NCBI GenBank assembly: GCA_964549685.1
Contig: CAZJVE010000001.1
Location: 107,906-171,905 of the forward strand
Direction: 5' to 3'
Length of the DNA stretch: 64,000 nt
Source of the DNA: an uncultured archaeon
GTDB taxonomy: Archaea; Altiarchaeota; Altiarchaeia; IMC4; QMZM01
A program made the translations under genes and the position numbers. Position 1 is the first letter of the stretch, and every line of letters begins with the position of its first letter. Of this stretch, positions 410-33,381 are shown in pieces. The notes under the pieces were generated by a model, which saw only the letters and a program-made list of their open reading frames with translations, did not search any database and was not told the DNA's origin.

Positions 410-1256
410 GGCTCTCCAGAAATAGTTTGGTATAGTCCTTTCTTCCGGCTTTTTTTGCCTTCTCCTTGAAGCCGTTGTCCCTTGCCAGCCTCTGGATTGT
501 CTTCCATGAGCCGGAGCCGTACTGGGCCGCCTTCTTTCTTCTGTTTATGATTGGGCCTGGAACGCCGAGCTCCTTTGCGAGGAGCCGGAGGATGTATTTC
601 CGGATGAATTTTTCGTCATCGATGCATGTGAATTCACCGGAATTTTTTATTTCGTGGATTTTCAGGTCCATTGGAATGTTCATTGAATAATTTTTGAATC
701 CCTCGTCCAGGAACGGGGCCCTCAACTCGATGCCGTTCTCCTTACAAATTGCGATGTCGTTGTTGAGCTGCTCCGTATGGATATTTTCGATGTCTTTCTT
801 CATCATCTCCTCGACTTGGGTGTAGTCGGGGAGCGGCTCGAGGTAGCGGTTATAGCCGCCGAAGAGCTCGTCGGCGCCCTGGCCGCAGAGCATTGTGGTA
901 AGGCTGTCTTCCCTCGCCTCTTTGGAAGCAAAGTGGAAGGGGACTGCGACAGAGACCTTCACGGGGTTGATATCATTGATTGCGGATACAATATGGGATA
1001 GAGAATTCTCAATCTTCTCCGGAGTCAATTCTATATTTTTTACATTAAAGCCCAAATCCTTTGCGTCCCTTGCATATTCGAGGTCGTGGGAGCCCGGAAT
1101 TCCGCAGGAGTATGCAGTAACATTCGAGAACTCTGATGCCAGGATTGCAACTATAGTGGAATCAACTCCGCCGGAGAATACAATGCCTATATTGGAATCA
1201 CAATCCTTTTCTACAGCCAAAGTTAGCAGTTCCCTCAGTCTTTCTACGTGCTCCAT
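381..1256 (-). CDS. Asparagine synthase-related PP-loop ATPase (adenylating domain only)
   Basis: SGGVDS PP-loop and the GQGADELFGGY motif typical of the AsnB C-terminal domain; no glutamine amidotransferase domain. Confidence 0.6.
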   Translation of the reverse strand: MEHVERLRELLTLAVEKDCDSNIGIVFSGGVDSTIVAILASEFSNVTAYSCGIPGSHDLEYARDAKDLGFNVKNIELTPEKIENSLSHIVSAINDINPVKVSVAVPFHFASKEAREDSLTTMLCGQGADELFGGYNRYLEPLPDYTQVEEMMKKDIENIHTEQLNNDIAICKENGIELRAPFLDEGFKNYSMNIPMDLKIHEIKNSGEFTCIDDEKFIRKYILRLLAKELGVPGPIINRRKKAAQYGSGSWKTIQRLARDNGFKEKAKKAGRKDYTKLFLESLKSQPREPP

Positions 1257-1293
1257 ACCCTAATAATTAGGGAATTAAGAAAGAAGATTCCCT

Positions 1294-2898
1294 TTAACCG
1301 AGAATCTCCTCCATCACGCCCTGCTCGACCTCGTCGACCAGGGGGATTCCGGTAACCGTCTTTGCCCTGTCCGTCAGGGATGCGATGTCGTTCCTGTCAA
1401 GGAGCTCCAGATTCCACTTCCTGGCCCCTGCCATCATCTGCTTCATACCCACTCCAAGCCTGTCAACAAAGTAGGAGTAAAGGCCGACTGCGGGCCATGG
1501 GAGCTTCTTTGCGTCTTTGCCAAAGCTGTCCTCTAAGTCTATGGTTGCTATGAAGAACTGCTCCGGCCTGTTTCCGTATAATGAGACGAAATTCTTGGGT
1601 AGTTTATTCTCCTTTGCCAACTCGACATAGTTCTTTGACTTCATCACTGCCGTTAAAGGCGCTCTGGCCATTCCTATGGTCTTTACGTAGGGGCCGTCAC
1701 CGAAGTTGCTCAGGGCTATGGACTTGAACATCTGGGTCTCATTTACAAATGAGCCGGCCATGCATATGTCAGGGATGTGTTTGCCTTTTTTCTTAAGGAT
1801 TTCAAGGCCCTTGAGAACCTGCGCCTGCAGATATACGGTGGGGGTGGAGGCCTCGTTCATCATCGGAACGGGGGACATTCCGGTTCCTCCTCCTGCGCCG
1901 TCAAAGGTTAGTAAATCTATCTTGGCCTCGGATGCAAGCTTCAGCGTAAGGGCGACCACCGCAGGCCTGTAAGCCCCGGTCTTGAGGAAGACCTTCTTTG
2001 CTCCCTGCTCCCTGAGCCAGTCTATGTCCTCGAGGAAAGCCTGGGAGTCTACCATGCCAACCCGGGAGTGCCTCTCAAATGACTCGAATACCTTGTTCCT
2101 GAAGGCCTCCTGGACGTGGGGGTCCTCTGGGTCTGGATGGACAACGTAGCCTCTCTTCTTCAGGAGTATCGCCCTGTCCAGGTCGAATATCCTTACTTCT
2201 CCTCCTATGGCCTTGGCTCCCTGGCCCCACTTCCTCTCTATGACATTGACCTCAAGCTTTGAGAGCGCATAGACATCGACTCCTCCTCGTTGATCTTCGA
2301 CGTTCGTCTGTACAACGATATCTCCATGTTTACCGTCCCAGAATTCCCGGTACTTCTTGACCCGGTATTCCATGTCTGCTGATTTTATGACCTTGCCCTT
2401 GGAGTCGTACTCTGAGTCGGAGTCCATGCCGCAGACGTTCTCTCCTATGACCTGGATTGTTCCGGAGATTGCTGCTCCGACCGCAAGACCGTCCCAGTTT
2501 CTCTTCGCAACCTCTGTTGAGCCAAGTCCGGCTAGAATTACAGGCACCTTTAGAGGTATTCCTCCCGCGGAGGTATTAATATCCACGTTTGTGAAGAGCG
2601 CCTTGTCGGAATCCGGCTCGATTCCCGCCGTGCCTCTGACATCGACCATTATCTGGAAGTGCGACCAGTCAAGCCCGTAGTCCTTGTTTGAAGAAGCGGT
2701 GCTCTTTCCGAATTCGCCGGGGTCAGGGTATAGAACCTCTCTACCCCTGAAGGCTGACTTTCCTATTTCACAAAGAATCTGACAGTCCTCTGTGCATATG
2801 GGACACATCCCGCTCTGGGGGTTCATGTCCTTCTTTCTAAGATTCGTTCCGGTTGTAGACCTTGCATTTGCGTAAATATCTGCCATTTTCAAACCCAT
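1294..2898 (-). CDS. Archaeal glutamate synthase-like FMN-binding protein (GltB domain 2 family)
   Basis: FMN-site motif FDGAGGGTGMSPV, Cys cluster CPICTEDC, length and overall similarity to archaeal GltB-type proteins. Confidence 0.7.
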   Translation of the reverse strand: MGLKMADIYANARSTTGTNLRKKDMNPQSGMCPICTEDCQILCEIGKSAFRGREVLYPDPGEFGKSTASSNKDYGLDWSHFQIMVDVRGTAGIEPDSDKALFTNVDINTSAGGIPLKVPVILAGLGSTEVAKRNWDGLAVGAAISGTIQVIGENVCGMDSDSEYDSKGKVIKSADMEYRVKKYREFWDGKHGDIVVQTNVEDQRGGVDVYALSKLEVNVIERKWGQGAKAIGGEVRIFDLDRAILLKKRGYVVHPDPEDPHVQEAFRNKVFESFERHSRVGMVDSQAFLEDIDWLREQGAKKVFLKTGAYRPAVVALTLKLASEAKIDLLTFDGAGGGTGMSPVPMMNEASTPTVYLQAQVLKGLEILKKKGKHIPDICMAGSFVNETQMFKSIALSNFGDGPYVKTIGMARAPLTAVMKSKNYVELAKENKLPKNFVSLYGNRPEQFFIATIDLEDSFGKDAKKLPWPAVGLYSYFVDRLGVGMKQMMAGARKWNLELLDRNDIASLTDRAKTVTGIPLVDEVEQGVMEEILG

Positions 2899-2969
2899 AG
2901 CTATTTAAATCTCTTCTTTAAATAACGTTGGTTTTACTTTTAAACTAAAAATACAGTATATATTAAAAG

Positions 2970-3503
2970 ATGAAACTGACTAGGAACGAAAGGAGGGTTC
3001 TAAAGTTTCTGATAGAGAATGGAAGGACTCAGGACGCAGAAATTGCAAGGGAATTAAAGATAACGCCGCAGGCCGTTGGCAAGATTAGGAGGAAGCTTGA
3101 AGAAGCCGGTGCCATAAAGGGTTACTCGGCCGTTATAGACTACGGAAAAATGGGTATAAACGTGCTTGCAATAGTCCTTTTCAAGTTCAGACCGGGGGCA
3201 AGAAAGAATTTGAATGAAAATGACATAGCCGAGAGAATGAAGGGGGCCCACATTATCAATTTCTACAGGGTCCCTGAGGGCGATGTCACCCATATAGTGA
3301 CCTACGGCTTCAGAACCCTGGAGGAGCTGGATAATTATTTCCACGTCCTGCAGACGGAGAGAGGCCATATAAGCGATATAAGGAAGCTCTACATCCTCTC
3401 GTCAAAGAGCGTAAGGAAGAATTCCGACCAGGAGCTATTGAAAAAGGTCATAGACGAGGTGGGGCATGAGACGCTTGCGAGGCCCCTGTCACCCAAGGTA
3501 TAA
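2970..3503 (+). CDS. Lrp/AsnC family transcriptional regulator
   Basis: N-terminal HTH (RRVLKFLIENGRTQDAEIARELKITPQAV) plus C-terminal ligand-binding domain. Confidence 0.75.
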   Translation: MKLTRNERRVLKFLIENGRTQDAEIARELKITPQAVGKIRRKLEEAGAIKGYSAVIDYGKMGINVLAIVLFKFRPGARKNLNENDIAERMKGAHIINFYRVPEGDVTHIVTYGFRTLEELDNYFHVLQTERGHISDIRKLYILSSKSVRKNSDQELLKKVIDEVGHETLARPLSPKV

Positions 3504-3523
3504 TCATAGCGTACTGTCTAGAC

Positions 3524-3940
3524 CTAATGAAACACGCCAAAATCCAGCAGCAGCGCAATGGCTATCGCGACTATCGAGAATGCAGAGATTATCATGTAGT
3601 TCAACCGTTCCTTTGATATGCTCACGCTCCAGAGGACGTATTTCAGGGCTTTGAGTACTTCTGGGTCCATGGCTGTGCAGCAGTCAATCTGGTTGAGGAG
3701 GTCTAGCTTCTTTATTAACCTGTATCTTCTCTGTGCTATCTGGTATCTGTGCATGAAGAATATGAGATATCCAATAATGCCGAAATACCAGAAGAATTTA
3801 GCCAGAAGGGGATAGTAGTGGTTTGCAATGAGTATGGCACGCAGGGAAAAGGCGGATAGTATGCCCAGGAAGAAGTAGGCCTGAATCATGAAGCTGCTAG
3901 AGCCAACCGGAATCTCTATTTTTTGTTCCATCATTCCCAC
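3524..3940 (-). CDS. Hypothetical membrane protein
   Basis: Three to four hydrophobic helices; no recognisable motif. Confidence 0.4.
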   Translation of the reverse strand: MGMMEQKIEIPVGSSSFMIQAYFFLGILSAFSLRAILIANHYYPLLAKFFWYFGIIGYLIFFMHRYQIAQRRYRLIKKLDLLNQIDCCTAMDPEVLKALKYVLWSVSISKERLNYMIISAFSIVAIAIALLLDFGVFH

Positions 3941-5454
3941 TCAATGGTTCCGGGAGGCTTGTGCGTGAGGTCATAGACGACCCGGTTTACCTGGGGGATT
4001 TCGTTTGTGATTCTGGTTGAAATCTTCTCAAGGATGTCATAGGGAATCCTCGCGAAGTTTGCTGTCATTCCGTCCCTGCTCTGGACTATCCTGAGGGCTA
4101 TCGTATTCTTGTAGGTCCTGACGTCTCCCTGCACCCCTACGCTCTTTACAGGCAATAAAACAGCGAAGGACTGCCATAATTCCATATCGAGTTTTGCCCT
4201 CCTTATCTCATCGTTCGTTATTGCATCCGCTTCTCTTACGATTTCGGTTCTCTCTGGAGTTATGTCGCCTATAATCCTTATGGCAAGGGCGGGTCCCGGG
4301 AATGGCATTCTCTCCGCTATGTCGCTGGGGAGGCCGAGTTTTTTCGCCACGGCCCTGACCTCGTCCTTGTATAGGTCCATGAGGGGTTCGACTATGTCAA
4401 GGTTCAGTTTGCTTGGAAGCCCCCCAACGTTGTGGTGGCTCTTGATGGTGCATGCATGCTGGGTGCCTGACTCAATCCTGTCTGGATATATGGTGCCCTG
4501 GACAAGAACCTCGGCATTGATTTCCTTCGCTGCCTCCTCGAAGACCCTGATAAAGTTTTCGCCGATTATCTTTCTCTTCTTCTCGGGGTCTTCCACTCCC
4601 TTGAGGGCACTGAAGAACCTGTCACTTGCGTCGATAATCCTGAGGTTTAGGTTGAACTTATTGAATACCTTCTCAATCTGCTTGGCTTCGTTCTTTCTCA
4701 TTAAGCCAGTGTCAACGAAAACGGATATAAGGTTCTTTTGAATTGCCTTTGCTGTCAGGATTGCTGCGGCGCTTGAGTCTACACCGCCGCTCAGGGCTAT
4801 GACCGCCTTTCTGTTGCCTACCTTTTCCTTAATATCCCTGACGGAGGCTTCGATGAAGTCCTCCATCCTCCAGTTAGGCTTTGCACCGCAGATATCGATT
4901 ACAAAATTCTCAAGTATCTTCATTCCGTTTTCGGTATGAACGACTTCCGGGTGCCATTGAAGGCCGTAGGTGTTTTTTGTTTTGTGCTTGTAGGCAGCTA
5001 CTGGGGAATTCTGCGTGTGGGCAAGAATTTCATAGTCATCAGAGATTTGGGTTACGGTATCTGAATGGCTCATCCAGGCTTTCTCTTTTTTATTCAGGCC
5101 CTTGAGAATTCCCTCCGGCTTGTCGATGGTTGCCTGGGTAATTCCGAATTCCTTTTTTCCTGCTGATTCTACCTTGCCGCCCGTTGAGTGTGCTATGAGC
5201 TGGTGTCCATAGCAAATGCCGAGAATTCCCAGGTCCAGATTCAGGATGTCCTTGTCGAATTTTATCTTGTCAGAATAGACACTTTGGGGGCCTCCCGAGA
5301 TGATGATGCCCTTTACGTTGTCACGGTCCTTAATCTCCTTTGCCGTGATCTCGGGCGAGACGATTTCGGAATAGACATTGAGTTCCCTAATCCTTCTGGC
5401 GATTAGATGGCAGTACTGCCCCCCAAAGTCTAGGACTAGGATGCAGTCGGTCAT
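3931..5454 (-). CDS. guaA: GMP synthase (glutamine-hydrolysing)
   Basis: N-terminal class-I glutamine amidotransferase, SGGVDSS PP-loop, C-terminal dimerisation domain ending PPGTIEWE. Confidence 0.9.
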   Translation of the reverse strand: MTDCILVLDFGGQYCHLIARRIRELNVYSEIVSPEITAKEIKDRDNVKGIIISGGPQSVYSDKIKFDKDILNLDLGILGICYGHQLIAHSTGGKVESAGKKEFGITQATIDKPEGILKGLNKKEKAWMSHSDTVTQISDDYEILAHTQNSPVAAYKHKTKNTYGLQWHPEVVHTENGMKILENFVIDICGAKPNWRMEDFIEASVRDIKEKVGNRKAVIALSGGVDSSAAAILTAKAIQKNLISVFVDTGLMRKNEAKQIEKVFNKFNLNLRIIDASDRFFSALKGVEDPEKKRKIIGENFIRVFEEAAKEINAEVLVQGTIYPDRIESGTQHACTIKSHHNVGGLPSKLNLDIVEPLMDLYKDEVRAVAKKLGLPSDIAERMPFPGPALAIRIIGDITPERTEIVREADAITNDEIRRAKLDMELWQSFAVLLPVKSVGVQGDVRTYKNTIALRIVQSRDGMTANFARIPYDILEKISTRITNEIPQVNRVVYDLTHKPPGTIEWE

Positions 5455-6536
5455 TTCAAAATCTTGATGAATTCGTCGAATAGGTAGTAGCTGTCGTGAG
5501 GGCCTGGGTTTGCCTCGGGGTGGTACTGGACGGCCATTACCGGGAGTTCCTCGTGCATGACGCCCTCGACGCTCTGGTCGTTCAGGTTTATGTGAGATAT
5601 ATCGAGAGTGTCCTTTATTGATTCTGCATCAACGGCAAAGCCGTGGTTCTGCGCAGTTATGTATACTCTGCCAGTCTTCATGTCCTTGACCGGCTGGTTG
5701 GAGCCGCGATGGCCGAACTTCAGCTTGTACGTCTTGGCCCCGAAGGCAAGGGATATGAGCTGAACACCGAGGCAGATTCCAAATAGTGGGAGCCTCTCCT
5801 TGACTAGGTTCTCAATGGTCTTTATCACATAGTCATACCTCTCGGGGTCACCGGGTCCGTTCGTTACTACTATGCCGTCGGGCTCATGCTCCAGAATCTT
5901 TTCTGCCGGGGTTTTTGCAGGGAACTGGATGACATTAATCCCCCTCTCCAGGATATGCTTTATTATGCTGGACTTCGTCCCGCAGTCTATCATTGCCAGT
6001 GTCTTTTTGCCCTTGGCGTCGTGCTTCTTTGTCTTCTTTATCGAGACCAGGTCGACTAGGTCAAGGTCAGAGATGTTCTTCAGTTTCCCTGCCCTCTCCT
6101 TCAGTTCCTCGAGCTCCTTGTCTTCATATGGGTATTTGAGAATTCCGTTCATGACGCCGTGGATTCTGATTTTTCTTGTTAAGAAACGTGTGTCTACCCC
6201 GTGTATTCCGGGGACGTCGTACTCCTTCAGGAACGCATCCAGGTCAGATGTCAGCTTACCGTGGCTCGGTTTCTGTGTCAATTCCCTCACTATGAAACCC
6301 TCCGCCTTTATCCCGTCGGATTCAAAATCCTCCTTGTTTATGCCGTAGTTGCCAACAAGAGGATAGGTCATCATAAGAATCTGGTACTTGTAGGATGGGT
6401 CGGTCAATGCTTCCTGGTAGCCGGTCATGGATGTGTTGAAAACAACCTCCCCCTCTGCCGTGTCCTTGGCTCCGAAACCGGTTCCCTTCAGGACTGTACC
6501 GTCCTGTAAGACTATCGCAGCGTTATTTTTATCCAT
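5451..6536 (-). CDS. carA: Carbamoyl-phosphate synthase small subunit
   Basis: CarA N-terminal domain (LVLEDGTV..GYQE..TDPSY) plus GATase domain with catalytic Cys (GICLG) and His. Confidence 0.88.
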   Translation of the reverse strand: MDKNNAAIVLQDGTVLKGTGFGAKDTAEGEVVFNTSMTGYQEALTDPSYKYQILMMTYPLVGNYGINKEDFESDGIKAEGFIVRELTQKPSHGKLTSDLDAFLKEYDVPGIHGVDTRFLTRKIRIHGVMNGILKYPYEDKELEELKERAGKLKNISDLDLVDLVSIKKTKKHDAKGKKTLAMIDCGTKSSIIKHILERGINVIQFPAKTPAEKILEHEPDGIVVTNGPGDPERYDYVIKTIENLVKERLPLFGICLGVQLISLAFGAKTYKLKFGHRGSNQPVKDMKTGRVYITAQNHGFAVDAESIKDTLDISHINLNDQSVEGVMHEELPVMAVQYHPEANPGPHDSYYLFDEFIKILK

Positions 6537-6699
6537 TATTAAAACGATTATAGAATGAGATAATAAGATATGCGGTTACAGATAGAATCGGTCTATGCGC
6601 CAGCAGGGGCGTTGAAACATCTTCTGCCCCGCTATTTATATAGATTCCTCTTAAATTAGATAAATCCAAAATAGCCTATATAGCCTAAATAGATTTAAG

Positions 6700-7620
6700 A
6701 TGGAACTCAGGAAGATTCAGCTTACAGGAGAAACGACCTTTATTGTTTCGTTGCCCAAGAAATGGGTCACCAAGAACAATCTGGTAAAGGGAGATATTGT
6801 AGCAATCTTGGAAAAGGAGGACGAGCTGGTTATCAGGCCGAAGAGTGAGAAGGGTTATGTTACTGAGATAAAGATAAAGCCTGAAAGCGACCTGGAGCTG
6901 ATAAAGAGGCTCATTATCACAAGGTATATTCAGGGGTACGACGGAATCTTCGTTACATCAAAGAAGCACATATCGCAGGACTTCAGAAAGGGTCTGGAAG
7001 GGGTGCCCATGTTTCTTATAGGGCTTGAACCCTTTGGTGGAAGCTCCAACGAAATTACATTTAGAATGCTGACCAAGGAAAAGGCCGAAATCATTGAGTC
7101 TGTCAGCAGGATGCACGAGATATCAGTCACGTCATTGAATGAGCTGATGGATCAGATAGACCTTGGCAAATATGAGAAGGACGTGCTTAATGGAATAATA
7201 ATGAGAGATAATGATGTAGATAAATTCTACTTCCTTATCCTGAGACAGCTGTCCTCGAGGTCGGGAAGAGAGGTAATTCCATTGATACAGATTATAAAGA
7301 GTATAGAGAGGATTTCAGACCACGTAGAGAGGATAGCGCGGTTGATGATAGAGAGGGGGAGAATCAATAAGAAGGACGTCGTCCAGTATAAAAGGTTGAT
7401 TGAGCTATATAATGATGCCATGCTTGCCCTGAGGTCTGAAAACATACATATAGCAAATGAGGTCATAAAGGATGTCAGGAGGATGAGGGAGGACGATGAG
7501 ATTCTGCTGGACAAGCTCCTGCAGAAAAAGACCGGCGGCTCCCTCCTCATACTCGAGAGTTTCAAGAGGATTGGCGAATACATATCCGACATTGCGGAGG
7601 CGGTAATTAATCTATCATAG
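6700..7620 (+). CDS. PhoU-domain phosphate-uptake regulator homologue with N-terminal AbrB/SpoVT-like domain
   Basis: Archaeal PhoU-like architecture with two helical PhoU repeats. Confidence 0.6.
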   Translation: MELRKIQLTGETTFIVSLPKKWVTKNNLVKGDIVAILEKEDELVIRPKSEKGYVTEIKIKPESDLELIKRLIITRYIQGYDGIFVTSKKHISQDFRKGLEGVPMFLIGLEPFGGSSNEITFRMLTKEKAEIIESVSRMHEISVTSLNELMDQIDLGKYEKDVLNGIIMRDNDVDKFYFLILRQLSSRSGREVIPLIQIIKSIERISDHVERIARLMIERGRINKKDVVQYKRLIELYNDAMLALRSENIHIANEVIKDVRRMREDDEILLDKLLQKKTGGSLLILESFKRIGEYISDIAEAVINLS

Positions 7621-7622
7621 AA

Positions 7623-8522
7623 ATGTACGATTTGGTTATAATAGGCGCGGGCCCGGCAGGAATCTCTGCTGGAATCTATGCAGTAAGGCGCAACCTGAAG
7701 ACGGTAATTCTGGAAAAGGCCTCTGTCGGGGGGCAGATGCTTTTAACAAATGACATAGAGAACTGGCCCGGCTTTGAGATGATTTCGGGTTCCGACTTGG
7801 CCAAGAGGATGGAGTCCCATGCAAAAAAGCTTGGGGTTGAGATTAAGACGGGGGAGGTTATAGGCATGTCCCTGGACGGGGATGTGAAGAAGCTGACCAC
7901 AAGGGATGGAGAATACGAAACCAAAGCCATCATAATCGCAAGCGGCGGGCAGCACAGAAAGCTTGGAATCAAGGGCGAGGATGAATTCGCCGGGAAGGGA
8001 GTGAGTTACTGTGCCACCTGCGATGCCCCGTTCTTCAAGGGCAAGGCCGTTGCCGTTGTGGGGGGAGGAAATATTGCCGCAGAGGATGCGCTCTATCTGA
8101 GCGAGATTGCATCGAAGGTCTATCTGATTCACAGGAAGGAATCCCTCAGGGCGGAGGAGGCCATTCAAAAGAGGCTGAAGGAGAAGGGGGTTGAGTTTAT
8201 TCTCAATGCAGAGGTTGAGGAGATTTCAGGGGAGACCTTTGTGAATAGCATCAAGCTGAAGGATGGGAAAAGCATCGAGGTGAATGGGATCTTCATATCC
8301 ATTGGGATTGTCCCCAGCACGACCATGGCAAAGGCAGCAGGAGTCGAGCTGGATAAGAAGGGCTATGTGAAGGTCAACAGGGAGCAGGAAACTAATGTCC
8401 AGGGAGTCTTTGCAGCGGGGGATGTTACAGGGGGAGTGATGCAGATTTCAACAGCAGTTGGAGAGGGGTGCATCGCTGCCCTCTCAGCCTATAGGTATGT
8501 GAAGAAGCCGTACTGGGGTTAG
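7623..8522 (+). CDS. trxB: Thioredoxin-disulfide reductase
   Basis: GAGPAG FAD motif, CATC redox-active disulfide, GGGN NADPH-binding motif. Confidence 0.88.
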   Translation: MYDLVIIGAGPAGISAGIYAVRRNLKTVILEKASVGGQMLLTNDIENWPGFEMISGSDLAKRMESHAKKLGVEIKTGEVIGMSLDGDVKKLTTRDGEYETKAIIIASGGQHRKLGIKGEDEFAGKGVSYCATCDAPFFKGKAVAVVGGGNIAAEDALYLSEIASKVYLIHRKESLRAEEAIQKRLKEKGVEFILNAEVEEISGETFVNSIKLKDGKSIEVNGIFISIGIVPSTTMAKAAGVELDKKGYVKVNREQETNVQGVFAAGDVTGGVMQISTAVGEGCIAALSAYRYVKKPYWG

Positions 8523-29723: not shown

Positions 29724-29911
29724 AGCAGACGTATCTGAAGAGGATTGCCAACGAGCTCCTTGAGAAATACAGGGGGGAGTTCGGCAAGGACTTTCAGAAG
29801 AATAAGGAGAAGGTGCATGAGCTAAGCACTGTAGAGAGCAAGGCCATAAGGAACAAGATTGCAGGCTACATAACGAAGGTTATGAAGAGGGAAGCGGTAG
29901 AGGCAAGCTAG
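29711..29911 (+). CDS. rps17e: 30S ribosomal protein S17e
   Basis: MGRIKQTYLKRIANELLEKY is a canonical S17e N-terminus. Confidence 0.88.
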   Translation: MGRIKQTYLKRIANELLEKYRGEFGKDFQKNKEKVHELSTVESKAIRNKIAGYITKVMKREAVEAS

Positions 29912-30699
29912 ATTTCATAGCACTTTTTCTTATAGCCGCATGCTTCGCATTTCTTTTCTGAGCCGTGGGAGCAGATTTCAGGGATTTTCCCCTGAAGGAT
30001 TTCTATTATCTCATCTCTTGTATTGATTACCTCCCTTCTCAGTTTCTCCGTTGTCATGACGGGCCTTCTCTCCTGGATTCTGGTATATTCGACAAAGCCG
30101 TGGGTTATTGGCTCCTTCAGCTTGAATTTGTCCTCAAGGAGCATTGCATAGGCACACGTCTGGAGGCGGTCGCCCTCCCATACTCCGTCTGACGGCTGGC
30201 CCGTCTTTATCTCTACCGGAACGTAGGTTTCATCGAGCATTATCTTGTCAACTCTCCCTGTAATTCCAATGCTGTCTGACTTTATGTAGTATTCTACCTT
30301 CCACGGAGTCACCATCTGCAGGGCCCGGTCGATTCCAAGCTCCTCGACAATAATTCCCAGCTTGGTGCTTATGGTTCCGATTTCTTTCAGCAGCTCCGAC
30401 CTTATGGCAGGGATGAAACTCTCATAGCGGGCATCCTTTAGCATTCCCTTGTAGATGGAGGGAAAGTCCTGCATTATCTGCTCCAGCTCCTGCAGCAGGA
30501 GAATTTCCAGCTCGTCAGGATGTTGAATCTTACCTAGTAACTTCGCCTGCCTCATGCTGAGTTCTTTTCTTACTGCATGTCCTAACAGTCCCTTGGTCTG
30601 CCCTTCTGTGGGTTTGGTCTTTATCTTCAATACCTTAGAAAGATAGATGTTCCTGGGGCAGAAGGTGTACTGGTTCAAGGTAGAGGCATTGACATTCAT
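29908..30699 (-). CDS. Cas4-like PD-(D/E)xK nuclease with 4-Cys Fe-S cluster (DUF83 family), not CRISPR-linked
   Basis: N-terminal Cys (YTFCPR), D (GRVDKI), ExK (VEIKTG), QxxxY (QTCAYAML), C-terminal CX8CX2CX5C. Confidence 0.7.
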   Translation of the reverse strand: MNVNASTLNQYTFCPRNIYLSKVLKIKTKPTEGQTKGLLGHAVRKELSMRQAKLLGKIQHPDELEILLLQELEQIMQDFPSIYKGMLKDARYESFIPAIRSELLKEIGTISTKLGIIVEELGIDRALQMVTPWKVEYYIKSDSIGITGRVDKIMLDETYVPVEIKTGQPSDGVWEGDRLQTCAYAMLLEDKFKLKEPITHGFVEYTRIQERRPVMTTEKLRREVINTRDEIIEILQGKIPEICSHGSEKKCEACGYKKKCYEI

Positions 30700-30976: not shown

Positions 30977-32392
30977 ATGGAGAAGCTGGATAAAATACTT
31001 ATCATAGGCTCCGGCCCCATACAGATTGGGCAGGCTGCGGAATTCGACTATAGTGGGAGCCAGGCCTGCCTCTCGCTGAGGGAGGAAGGGAAGACGGTGG
31101 TTCTTGTGAATTCTAACCCGGCTACAATAATGACGGAGCCGGACATTGCGGACATAATCTACATCGAGCCCCTGGTTCCGGAGGTTGTTGCAAAGATTAT
31201 AGAGAAGGAGAAGCCAGACGGGATTCTGCCCACGATGGGGGGACAGACCGGCCTGAACCTTGCTTCTGCCCTGGCAGTTATGGGTGTCTTTGAAGAACAT
31301 AACGTAAAGATACTTGGAACGCCGATAGAGACGATAAAGAACGGCGAGGACAGGGACTCGTTTGCTAACCTTATGAGAGAGATTAACGAGCCAGTGCCCC
31401 CAAGCAAGGCGGTAAATTCGTTCATTGAGGCAAAGGAGGCTGCGGATGAGATTGGCTATCCAGTCATTGTCAGGCCTGCCTACACTCTTGGCGGAGGAGG
31501 GGGCGGAATTGCAGAGAACGAGGAGGAGCTCGAGAGGATAGCAAGGCACGGCCTGCAGCTGAGTATGATAAACCAGGTTCTGATTGAACAGTCGCTCATT
31601 GGCTGGTATGAGTTCGAGTATGAGGTGATGAGAGACTCCGCGGATAACTGTATAACTATATGCTCGATGGAGAATTTCGACCCGATGGGGATTCATACCG
31701 GCGAGAGCATAGTCGTTGCCCCTGCCCAGACTCTGAGTGACGTGGATAACCAGATGCTCAGGAGCGCTTCGTTAAAGATTATAAGGGCTCTGGGCGTTGA
31801 AGGAGGGTGCAACATACAGTTTGCTTTGCATCCCGAAACCAGGGAGTATATGGTGATAGAGGTCAATCCCCGAGTTTCAAGGTCGTCAGCACTGGCTTCC
31901 AAGGCAACCGGCTATCCGATAGCAAGAGTTGCAGCAAAGGTCGCGATAGGAAAAACCCTGGACGAGATTCCGAACGAGGTTACCAAGAAAACACCATCTT
32001 CTTTCGAGCCGTCAATAGACTATATCGTGCTGAAGATCCCGAGATGGCCCTTTGACAAGTTCAGGGACATTGACAGGACCATAGAAACGCAGATGAAGGC
32101 AACGGGAGAGGTCATGTCCATAGGCAGAACATTCGAGGAGGCGCTGCAGAAGGCGATAAATTCCCTGGACGTTGGGAAGGTGGGAATCAGCGGCATGGGC
32201 GAAACGGACATTGACAAGATTAAGGCAAAAATTGAAACCCCGAACGACGAGAGGATGTTCTATATTGTCGATGGGTTCAAGGCAGGCATGTCTGTCGATG
32301 AGATTAATGAGATTTCCCACATCTGCCCCTGGTTCCTGGAGAAGATTAAGGGGCTGGTTGATACAGCAGAGAAGTTTAAGATTGCTATTTAA
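30977..32392 (+). CDS. carB: Carbamoyl-phosphate synthase large subunit, N-terminal half (split gene)
   Basis: Complete first ATP-grasp domain and the start of the oligomerisation domain; stop after ~471 aa, as in split carB of some methanogens; C-half not in the window. Confidence 0.8.
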
Positions 32393-32450
32393 TTTCTGGA
32401 TTGGAGTGCTAAAATATCCCATATTTATCCGTGTAATCTAAGTTAGTTAT

Positions 32451-33155
32451 ATGAGATTTCCGGCGCTTGGTCCTGATCTTGCAGAGTTCGTAGGTGTGCT
32501 CCTAGGTGACGGTTCAATAGGCAGATATGAGTGTCGTGCAGGAGATAAAATCAAAATCCAACATAGAGTAAAAGTAACCGGTGATGGGGAAGAGGACCTG
32601 CCATATTTCAAGGAGTTTTTGTCCCCATTAATGACAAACCTCTTTGGTAAAGGGCCGTTGCTTCGTTTCAAAAGAAACGAAAGGACTGCAGAACTCGCAT
32701 ATTTTGGTAAGGAGTTATATGAATTCTTAATTGGATTAGGTATGGTTTCCGCCCCAAAGAGAAATAGAGCAATAATTCCTCCTTTTGTATTTGAGAAAAA
32801 TCTTGAATTGCATTTCCTGAGGGGTTTGTTTGACACAGATGGGTGTTTAGTATTTGACAAACAGCACAAGGATATTCATTACTACCCCAGAATAGAGATA
32901 AAGATGTTGTCGTGTCCTATGAGGGAGCAATTGTTGAGTATACTGTCAGATAGAGGGTTCAGATATATAACTTCACCCCAACCTAATGAGGGCTTGAGGA
33001 TACAGATGAATGGTAAGAAAATATTTGAGAGGTGGATGAAGGATATTGGGTTCAATAACCAGAAACACGTAAGCAAGTATGATGTATGGAGTAAGTTTGG
33101 ATATTACACACCAAATACCACACTGAAGGAAAGAATCGATATTCTAGCGCAGTGA
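32451..33155 (+). CDS. Free-standing double-motif LAGLIDADG homing endonuclease
   Basis: Two LAGLIDADG motifs (VLLGDGSIG and LRGLFDTDGCL) about 100 aa apart; AT-rich compared with its neighbours. Confidence 0.75.
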   Translation: MRFPALGPDLAEFVGVLLGDGSIGRYECRAGDKIKIQHRVKVTGDGEEDLPYFKEFLSPLMTNLFGKGPLLRFKRNERTAELAYFGKELYEFLIGLGMVSAPKRNRAIIPPFVFEKNLELHFLRGLFDTDGCLVFDKQHKDIHYYPRIEIKMLSCPMREQLLSILSDRGFRYITSPQPNEGLRIQMNGKKIFERWMKDIGFNNQKHVSKYDVWSKFGYYTPNTTLKERIDILAQ

Positions 33156-33228
33156 TTGCTATTTAACGCCTTATTCTGAAAGTATTAAACGCGAGGTTGC
33201 TGTTCACCGTAGCGAAATAGTACCCTAT

Positions 33229-33381
33229 AGCGGGATTGAGCAGCCAGGAGTGCTCGTCGGACGTATGGAGGTGTTATACATGCTCGTGCGGGCGAAGCTC
33301 ATATGAGGGTTTTTAACCAATCGTGAGAAAAAGTGCTTCTGAGAGACCCGAAGGTCGGTGGTTCAAATCCACCTCCCGCTA
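33229..33381 (+). tRNA. Initiator-type tRNA-Met(CAT) with two predicted introns (exons 33229..33260, 33297..33303, 33346..33381)
   Basis: A1:U72 acceptor AGCGGGA/TCCCGCT, D-loop AGCCAGGAG, T-arm GGTGG-TTCAAAT-CCACC, variable AGGTC. Joining the three exons gives anticodon arm UCGGG-CUCAUAA-CCCGA, an initiator signature. Confidence 0.55.

Follow-up and report, generated by a model that had tools for sequence, protein, structure and literature searches.

A probable free-standing LAGLIDADG homing endonuclease gene beside an intron-containing initiator tRNA gene in Altiarchaeota, with a family-wide link to archaeal tRNA genes

We analysed a stretch of 64,000 nucleotides from an uncultured archaeon of the Altiarchaeota (GenBank assembly GCA_964549685.1, contig CAZJVE010000001.1, positions 107,906 to 171,905; hereafter the window), in which an open reading frame (ORF) with two LAGLIDADG motifs lies between the N-terminal half of carB (carB-N), which encodes part of the large subunit of carbamoyl-phosphate synthetase (CPS), and the gene for the initiator tRNA (tRNAiMet). 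We consider it probable that this ORF (32451..33155, plus strand) is a functional, selfish, free-standing homing endonuclease gene that lives at the border of a tRNA gene, in this case that of tRNAiMet. Comparison with related loci shows it to belong to a large family, present in Altiarchaeota and in DPANN-type archaea, in which each clade is tied to one tRNA species and the ORF typically abuts the tRNA gene or extends into it with its last codons. DNA cleavage by the enzyme, the position of its target and homing are inferred, as would be any protective or hitch-hiking role of the two introns of the adjacent tRNA gene.

The ORF starts 58 nt (32393..32450) after the stop codon of carB-N in a different reading frame and has a GC content of 38-43% versus 50-53% in carB. 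It encodes a protein of 234 aa with two LAGLIDADG motifs, LAEFVGVLLGDGS and FLRGLFDTDGC, whose cores are LLGDGS (LLGDG, with the catalytic Asp20 in GDG) and LFDTDGC (LFDTDG, with the catalytic Asp130 in DTDG), so that the AT-rich double-motif gene described by the first-pass annotation, which had been made from the sequence alone, was confirmed, as were its other sequence-level statements. Searches with the window ORF yielded 72 homologues at E ≤ 1e-3. The score of the window protein against Pfam PF14528 (LAGLIDADG_3) was 18.2 bits and thus below the gathering cut-off of 22.5, and PF14528, PF03161 or PF00961 is present in many of the homologues; the sub-threshold score is due to divergence and not to a different fold. 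An AlphaFold2 model based on a 24-sequence alignment (predicted local distance difference test score 94.4, predicted template modelling score 0.91) consists of two tandem alpha-beta-beta-alpha-beta-beta-alpha modules with the beta-sheets forming a DNA-binding saddle, supporting the monomeric enzyme that had been proposed from the motifs. The top Foldseek matches of the model were I-Tsp061I and I-DmoI (probability 1.00, template modelling scores 0.66-0.74), with the bI3 maturase also being among the fold matches, and a sequence search against solved structures gave weak matches to I-Tsp061I and I-DmoI, both of which are archaeal enzymes encoded in introns.

Asp20 and Asp130 are invariant in the 24-sequence alignment and are kept in 83 of 84 and 84 of 84 family members from contigs, respectively, and the ratio of non-synonymous to synonymous substitution rates (dN/dS) of the endonuclease among Altiarchaeota orthologues is 0.04-0.17, as low as that of carB. 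The fold, the conserved Asp residues and the low dN/dS therefore indicate an intact enzyme under selection rather than a relic. The ORF is far beyond chance, having homologues, a high-confidence LAGLIDADG fold and purifying selection, and its product has the double-motif LAGLIDADG fold, each motif carrying an acidic residue. Site-specific double-strand cleavage of a 14-40 bp target, the activity that characterises such enzymes, is predicted for it. The first 11 nt of the ORF (32451..32461, ATGAGATTTCC) recur within carB at 32307..32317, 144 nt upstream, which is probably a matter of chance.

The link to tRNA genes emerged when metagenome contigs were scanned with the family alignment, resulting in more than 470 relatives, from which 80 loci were kept. 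tRNA adjacency was counted in 67 unselected loci with at least 200 nt of downstream sequence, the expectation being derived from the local tRNA density. A tRNA-like gene on the same strand started between -60 and +150 nt from the end of the ORF in 32 of the 67 loci, compared with 1.4 expected, the stop codon of the ORF often being located inside the tRNA. Convergent tRNA genes abut the ORF in about ten further loci and a tRNA gene lies just upstream in about six; several iMet genes near family members were missed by the strict detector. ARAGORN in intron mode independently called tRNAs of many isoacceptors at many of these positions, and two distant family members derived from genomes have the same ORF-tRNA layout. 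As a negative control we inspected 52 distant LAGLIDADG loci on viral contigs, none of which has a tRNA within 1.5 kb.

The endonuclease tree groups by the type of the adjacent tRNA in either orientation (Gln-like AGCCCCG, Arg-TCG, Leu, Ser and iMet), a correspondence between clade and tRNA that sequence-specific targeting of a tRNA locus predicts. Tight abutment in either orientation would also suit a target within the tRNA or at its border, and on the endonuclease strand the acceptor-stem 7-mer would follow the ORF in both orientations. As judged from these comparisons, the endonuclease tracks tRNA genes and not carB throughout the family. The first-pass annotation had considered a mobile endonuclease targeting the adjacent tRNA or carB sequence; the comparative data favour the first of these targets. 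We rejected a viral vector for the family, as the viral contigs carry only distant LAGLIDADG genes (at most 33% identity), none of them near a tRNA, and viral copies of the family itself were not found in the viral contig search.

Related loci also reveal how the gene is inserted. The original layout consists of the carB-N stop codon, 30-170 nt and tRNA-Met(CAT), and the order carB-N followed by tRNAiMet is, according to the loci compared, ancestral. Locus L008, with 95% CarB identity, provides a precise empty site, its sequence running collinear with that of the window to the left and to the right of a 774-bp insertion. A 13-nt direct repeat, GATTGCTATTTAA, which matches twice in the window versus 0.01 expected, occurs as a left copy (32380..32392, plus strand) that forms the 13-nt end of carB with the stop codon and as a right copy (33154..33166, plus strand) that overlaps the TGA stop codon of the endonuclease. 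The 5' part of the cassette (32393..32450, plus strand) contains the conserved motif GGAGTGCTAAAATATCCCATATTTA at 32403..32427 and a TATA-like ATATTTA about 26 nt before the ATG. The motif directly follows the carB stop codon in L011, L013, L018 and L019 and is located upstream of the endonuclease in the rearranged locus L004, and the region is probably the gene's own promoter, giving rise to a leaderless or short-leader mRNA. The original carB-tRNA spacer is kept 3' of the insertion (33167..33228, plus strand), is collinear with the spacer of L008 and presumably carries the tRNA promoter AAAGTATTAAA. The duplication of 13 nt together with the retained spacer reveals an atypical, probably illegitimate, right-hand junction in the window.

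Presence of the cassette varies among close relatives and is patchy on the carB tree. The endonuclease occupies the gap between carB-N and the tRNA in the window, L011, L018 (same locus as L001/L002), L019 and L170, and it is absent, with carB-N being directly followed by the tRNA, in L008, L076 (90% CarB identity), L009, L010, L012, L014, L015, L017 and L020; in L022 neither endonuclease nor tRNA follows carB-N. In L004 the endonuclease remains beside the tRNA with carB-N being 4.5 kb away, and in L171 it is convergent to the tRNA. Some copies have decayed: that of L013 is frameshifted, and L079 keeps no more than a 3' remnant. Cassette-bearing lineages are scattered over the carB tree, each having a cassette-less sister; invasion followed by decay and loss is how homing endonuclease genes classically live. 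The endonuclease shows less synonymous divergence (dS) than the adjacent carB for L011-L018 (0.86 vs 2.46) and for L018-L019 (0.19 vs 0.38), which lends weak support to mobility.

Several observations were made at these loci in passing. In L021 a different LAGLIDADG ORF (6767..7351, 194 aa) fills the same gap between carB-N and tRNAiMet, the tRNA being intron-less; it scores 34 bits against PF14528, above the cut-off, has GNG in motif 1, with Asn replacing the first catalytic Asp, and resembles the window protein at the level of the motifs only. In L004 four genes are inserted between carB-N and the endonuclease (841..4896), two of them with SLFN_AlbA_2 and one of these two proteins also with HATPase_c_4 and helix-turn-helix domains, and the block from carB-N to the endonuclease is inverted relative to its L40e/Cas4-like/S17e neighbours. 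In L002 the NCBI gene calls place an IS605 OrfB/TnpB-like gene with a Cas12f1-like TNB domain 3' of the locus (7046..8152), whilst in the ENA entry for this sequence another gene is called there, on the opposite strand.

The neighbouring carB-N (30977..32392, plus strand) is a stand-alone gene of 471 aa that adjoins the endonuclease element without being part of it. It covers positions of about 4-473 of the NCBIfam carB models (about 1050 positions), and its Pfam content comprises CPSase_L_D1 and D2 followed by positions 2-52 of 80 of the D3 oligomerisation domain, so that carB indeed stops inside this domain, as had been proposed. Likewise, carA is unlinked (5451..6536, minus strand) and a tblastn search of the window with a full-length relative as query detected only the N-half and its paralogous cross-hit, confirming that the C-half is missing from the window. 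Nor was a C-half found within 6 kb of carB-N in any of about 20 Altiarchaeota loci; a C-half query in a protein search returned full-length carB only, rendering this search uninformative on the C-half. The homologues and the carB relatives place the window in the Altiarchaeota. In all of the approximately 20 Altiarchaeota loci examined carB ends at 466-471 aa, and most of them lack the endonuclease. In sister lineages the gene is contiguous, contiguous carB being present in Hydrothermarchaeales, Methanobacteriota and bacteria. carB-N has a dN/dS of 0.04-0.12 across Altiarchaeota (about 20 genomes with the N-half), which corresponds to purifying selection.

The first-pass annotation had suggested that the endonuclease might be a relic of the event that split carB, a proposal under which we also count an intein in decay and a fractured gene, where two gene halves are separated by an endonuclease gene. 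The position of the endonuclease directly after the truncated carB is in line with it, and phage Aeh1 nrdA/mobE is a case where insertion of an endonuclease gave a gene in pieces. Further precedent for endonuclease insertions that create genes in pieces is provided by fractured genes (PMC2677866). However, relatives with the same split are mostly devoid of the endonuclease, the kind of finding by which the first-pass annotation would have its proposal refuted, the C-half is not nearby in any of these loci, and the empty site of L008 implies that insertion took place after the stop codon. Moreover, the endonuclease goes with the tRNA and not with carB in L004, in L171 and family-wide. Since carB ends alike in all Altiarchaeota loci, most of them without endonuclease, the split is, as far as the sampled loci indicate, clade-wide, older than the insertion and unrelated to the endonuclease, and since the insertion is located behind the stop codon of carB, which it has duplicated, carB was already a split gene with its own stop before the cassette came in. 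With Pfam and NCBIfam, neither CarB-N nor the endonuclease was found to have a Hint or intein domain, the ORF is in another frame with its own start and upstream region, a stop codon and the 58-nt spacer intervene, and the carB halves do not flank it. We thus discarded the intein and fractured-gene readings, in agreement with the first-pass annotation as regards the intein, and consider the carB relic as a whole to be refuted. The carB part of the locus is ordinary in itself, being a clade-wide split gene with known precedents.

Two further observations concern carB-N and its surroundings. In L077 (Altiarchaeales IMC4/SM1; 6001..7020) the match to carB-N is restricted to residues 4-304 and the frame closes at about 339 aa, which may be due to a truncation, a frameshift or an assembly problem. 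On the other side of carB-N the window encodes a Cas4/Csa1-like PD-(D/E)XK nuclease with a C-terminal Cys cluster (29908..30699, minus strand), a gene that adjoins rpl40e and carB-N in all Altiarchaeota loci seen; in a passing look, neither a CRISPR array nor other cas genes were noticed near it.

The tRNAiMet gene (33229..33381, plus strand) begins 73 nt after the end of the ORF, and the intron-containing tRNA that had been placed there is real. Setting its exon and intron borders against the intron-less orthologues of L013, L076 and L012 resulted in two predicted introns, with all parts on the plus strand: exon 1 (33229..33260, 32 nt, positions 1-30), intron 1 (33261..33296, 36 nt, between positions 30 and 31), the 7-nt micro-exon 2 GCTCATA carrying the anticodon CAT (33297..33303), intron 2 (33304..33345, 42 nt, at the canonical 37/38 position) and exon 3 (33346..33381, 36 nt, positions 38-73). 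Archaeal initiator tRNA-Met is diagnosed by the anticodon CAT, the pair A1:U72 and three G:C pairs closing the anticodon stem. Upon splicing in silico, ARAGORN called a tRNA-Met(CAT) with a perfect cloverleaf, in which the pair A1:U72 is present and the anticodon stem contains GGG/CCC. The two-intron gene itself was missed by ARAGORN, with and without the intron option, and by Rfam (gathering score, E ≤ 1). An essential initiator tRNA is thus invisible to both, so that such genomes seem to lack one and tRNA sets are under-annotated.

Bulge-helix-bulge introns have their splice sites in two bulges of 3 nt with a helix of 4 bp between them. Intron 1 can fold into a hairpin that is conserved through compensatory changes, but its motif is relaxed. 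For intron 2 of the window a canonical hBHBh' structure, i.e. a bulge-helix-bulge (BHB) with flanking helices, can be drawn by hand (not computed), with CUCA/UGAG as helix H and GAGG/CUUC as helix h'; helix H of intron 2 in L018 has 3 pairs only. The tRNAiMet genes of relatives contain 0, 1, 2 or 3 introns, the third one being located in the T-loop in L008 (7479..~7650) and L009 (2382..~2560). These two loci have the T-stem CGAGG/CCTCG in common, though they are far apart on the carB tree, and the T-stem of the window, GGTGG/CCACC, resembles those of L011 and L018 and not those of its nearest relatives L008 and L076. Comparison of the T-stems with the carB tree therefore makes the tRNA alleles look mosaic or exchanged between lineages. 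In L010 (~3016..3085) a 19-nt copy of the 5' part of the tRNA, GGGGGGTTGAGCAGCCAGG, is found at the position where the tRNA of its sister L009 starts, followed by about 50 nt of unrelated sequence and then by the complete tRNA; the fragment may be the scar of an earlier insertion or deletion.

With the tRNA structure at hand we asked if the ORF might be an intron-encoded endonuclease in disguise, located, like that of I-DmoI, inside a very long BHB intron, or inside a processed pre-tRNA leader. The closest solved relatives are archaeal intron-encoded enzymes and the ORF runs into the 5' end of the tRNA in relatives, both of which would suit such an arrangement. However, the 5' acceptor strand of the tRNA is contiguous with the D-arm, making an upstream exon unnecessary, and no upstream tRNA exon was found. 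Upstream tRNA fragments occur at chance level, with a mean longest match of 6.9 nt versus 6.8 nt in controls. Moreover, the ORF of the window ends 73 nt before position 1 of the tRNA, this interval including the old spacer. We regard this explanation as very improbable, which agrees with the earlier statement that the ORF is not inside an rRNA or tRNA intron. A partial tRNA duplication upstream of the ORF, as expected if the cassette had been inserted into the tRNA, was rejected as well: the shared 8-mer GGAGTGCT is within chance, and upstream matches in the whole family equal those of the controls.

The introns show an association with the endonuclease. All seven intact copies of the Altiarchaeota-type clade (window, L011, L018, L019, L004, L170 and L171) adjoin the two-intron tRNAiMet allele, which is found in 4 of the 12 loci without an intact copy (Fisher test about 0.007, uncorrected for phylogeny), and the frameshifted copy of L013 adjoins an intron-less tRNA. 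Within the contigs of the family, 26 of 32 endonuclease-adjacent tRNAs carry introns compared with 24 of 43 other tRNAs (p = 0.027). Intact members with both catalytic Asp residues are nevertheless located beside intron-less tRNAs, such tRNAs being abutted by L102, L140, L109, L095, L116, L156 and L157. Introns are therefore not generally needed for self-protection, and we ruled them out as a general requirement for self-immunity.

This association bears on the possibility that the protein is domesticated and kept by the host, either as a maturase-like factor or chaperone that helps the unusual two-intron pre-tRNAiMet to fold or to be spliced, or because it regulates the tRNA gene, and does not spread selfishly. 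Such a role would be in line with the dN/dS, which is as low as that of carB, with the occurrence of all intact copies beside the two-intron allele and of the broken copy beside an intron-less tRNA, and with the ORF often being on the same strand as the tRNA and overlapping it, which suggests co-transcription. LAGLIDADG maturases are an established class, of which the bI3 maturase appeared among the fold matches. On the other hand, L008, L009 and L010 have the same introns without an endonuclease at the locus and L079 has the remnant only, and both catalytic Asp residues, which pure RNA binding would not need, are kept in essentially all members. As many members adjoin intron-less tRNAs or are, as in L171, convergent to the tRNA, neither co-transcription nor introns are general. 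Finally, it is established that the splicing endonuclease cuts the BHB introns of archaea, for which maturases are not known (see also the review PMC4090602). Taken together, we judge domestication to be unlikely.

If the gene is indeed a selfish homing endonuclease, as we prefer, the introns could be part of its spread. In this sub-model, termed collaborative homing, the target would be the intron-less anticodon arm of the tRNAiMet gene, and the introns would protect the carrier and spread with the endonuclease. The introns at 30/31 and 37/38 lie 7 bp apart and would interrupt such a site, and the anticodon arm is a natural pseudo-palindrome, presumably the type of site that LAGLIDADG enzymes favour. 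The perfect co-occurrence with the two-intron allele in the Altiarchaeota-type clade, the sole broken copy being beside an intron-less tRNA, and the higher frequency of introns in adjacent tRNAs point in the same direction, and phages offer a precedent (PMC3984707, as far as its account of Zeng et al. 2009 and Bonocora & Shub 2009 goes). The intact members beside intron-less tRNAs argue against the sub-model, however; tRNAs of DPANN archaea are intron-rich anyway, with about half of the non-adjacent ones carrying introns, and simple linkage accounts for the co-occurrence equally well, hitch-hiking of a linked allele explaining it no worse than immunity. We therefore treat collaborative homing as a tentative refinement with less than an even chance by some way.

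For the homing endonuclease gene at a tRNA flank that we favour, a cycle of the following kind is conceivable. The cassette would bring its own conserved promoter-like 5' region, and the monomeric two-domain enzyme would recognise a long asymmetric site within the highly conserved tRNA gene or at its border, causing a double-strand break in the tRNA locus of a genome without the cassette. Repair from the cassette-bearing allele would copy the endonuclease gene and the neighbouring tRNA allele into the broken locus, with carB and the tRNA, which flank it, serving as the two homology arms, in a manner corresponding to the intronless homing of phage T4 seg/mob genes. The conserved tRNA would thereby provide both the recognition sequence and one homology arm. 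After fixation the gene would decay and be lost, leaving a patchy distribution. The window copy, a 774-bp insertion at the carB stop codon with a 13-nt duplication, would have arisen with an illegitimate right junction and not by clean homing.

Several points weigh against this interpretation. The strong purifying selection would also be in keeping with a domesticated gene passed on vertically, as would the fact that endonuclease and carB have diverged equally, and the 13-nt flanking duplication is not the product of clean double-strand-break repair. The site that this endonuclease targets is not derivable in silico, and the activity of the enzyme is predicted only. About a quarter of the family, e.g. 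L173, has no adjacent tRNA by the detectors used, and an assembly error could have produced the frameshift of L013, since both records probably originate from one sample. A gradient of dS along carB towards the cassette, which would be a trace of co-conversion, was looked for and none was seen.

Beyond the single locus, we can tentatively envisage, while holding it to be rather doubtful, that a large free-standing LAGLIDADG family on the chromosomes of Altiarchaeota and DPANN archaea uses individual tRNA genes as homing targets and thereby drives exchange of tRNA alleles between lineages and gain, spread and retention of BHB introns in tRNA genes. The introns would then, with the same reservation, be hitch-hikers, interruptions of the target site, or both. 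Archaeal homing endonucleases are known from rRNA introns and inteins. A chromosomal family beside tRNA genes, with one clade per tRNA species, would thus be a new niche for these enzymes and would comprise many natural LAGLIDADG scaffolds, presumably with different specificities derived from tRNAs. If true, an endonuclease that breaks and converts tRNA loci would represent a DNA-level mechanism for the mobility and abundance of archaeal tRNA introns and would extend the idea of Randau and Söll that gene disruption shields tRNA genes from mobile elements. A tRNA-locus endonuclease would also make both intron transposition and intron protection testable with natural empty and filled sites. Full-text literature searches, covering few of the subscription journals, gave no account of LAGLIDADG genes located beside the tRNA genes of archaea. 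A review on tRNA introns (PMC4090602) describes the mechanism of archaeal tRNA intron transposition as unknown and discusses introns as a protection of tRNA genes against mobile DNA; the word 'homing' is absent from it.

Both parts of the locus can be compared with known systems. A split CPS large subunit is known from the carB sections of Methanocaldococcus jannaschii. In Aquifex aeolicus the CPS large subunit is likewise encoded as separate N and C halves, CPS.A and CPS.B, and the separate subunits assemble to an active enzyme (PMC6022934, in the part that cites Ahuja et al. 2001). In contrast to the splits in Aquifex and M. jannaschii, that of Altiarchaeota is a trait of the whole sampled clade, with any C-half being unlinked (more than 6 kb away).

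As for the endonuclease, I-DmoI and I-Tsp061I share with the window protein the archaeal origin, the two-domain monomeric LAGLIDADG fold and an acidic residue in each motif, the identity being about 16-18% over the structural alignment. They are encoded inside BHB introns of rRNA genes and home to intron-less rDNA, whereas that of the window is a free-standing gene with an upstream region of its own and adjoins a tRNA gene. In its location the gene resembles the free-standing seg/mob endonuclease genes of phage T4, which lie between conserved genes and are patchy among relatives. SegB is encoded within a cluster of tRNA genes, where it cleaves, and it promotes the region's preferential inheritance (PMC2330249). 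SegB, however, is a GIY-YIG enzyme of a phage, whereas the window gene encodes a LAGLIDADG protein of archaeal chromosomes whose clades are each associated with a single tRNA species. Finally, collaborative homing at cyanophage psbA and phage Aeh1 nrdA is similar in that a free-standing endonuclease adjoins a gene with an ORF-less intron, but the introns described here are presumably protein-spliced BHB introns in a tRNA and not group I introns, and other members of the family are found beside intron-less tRNAs.

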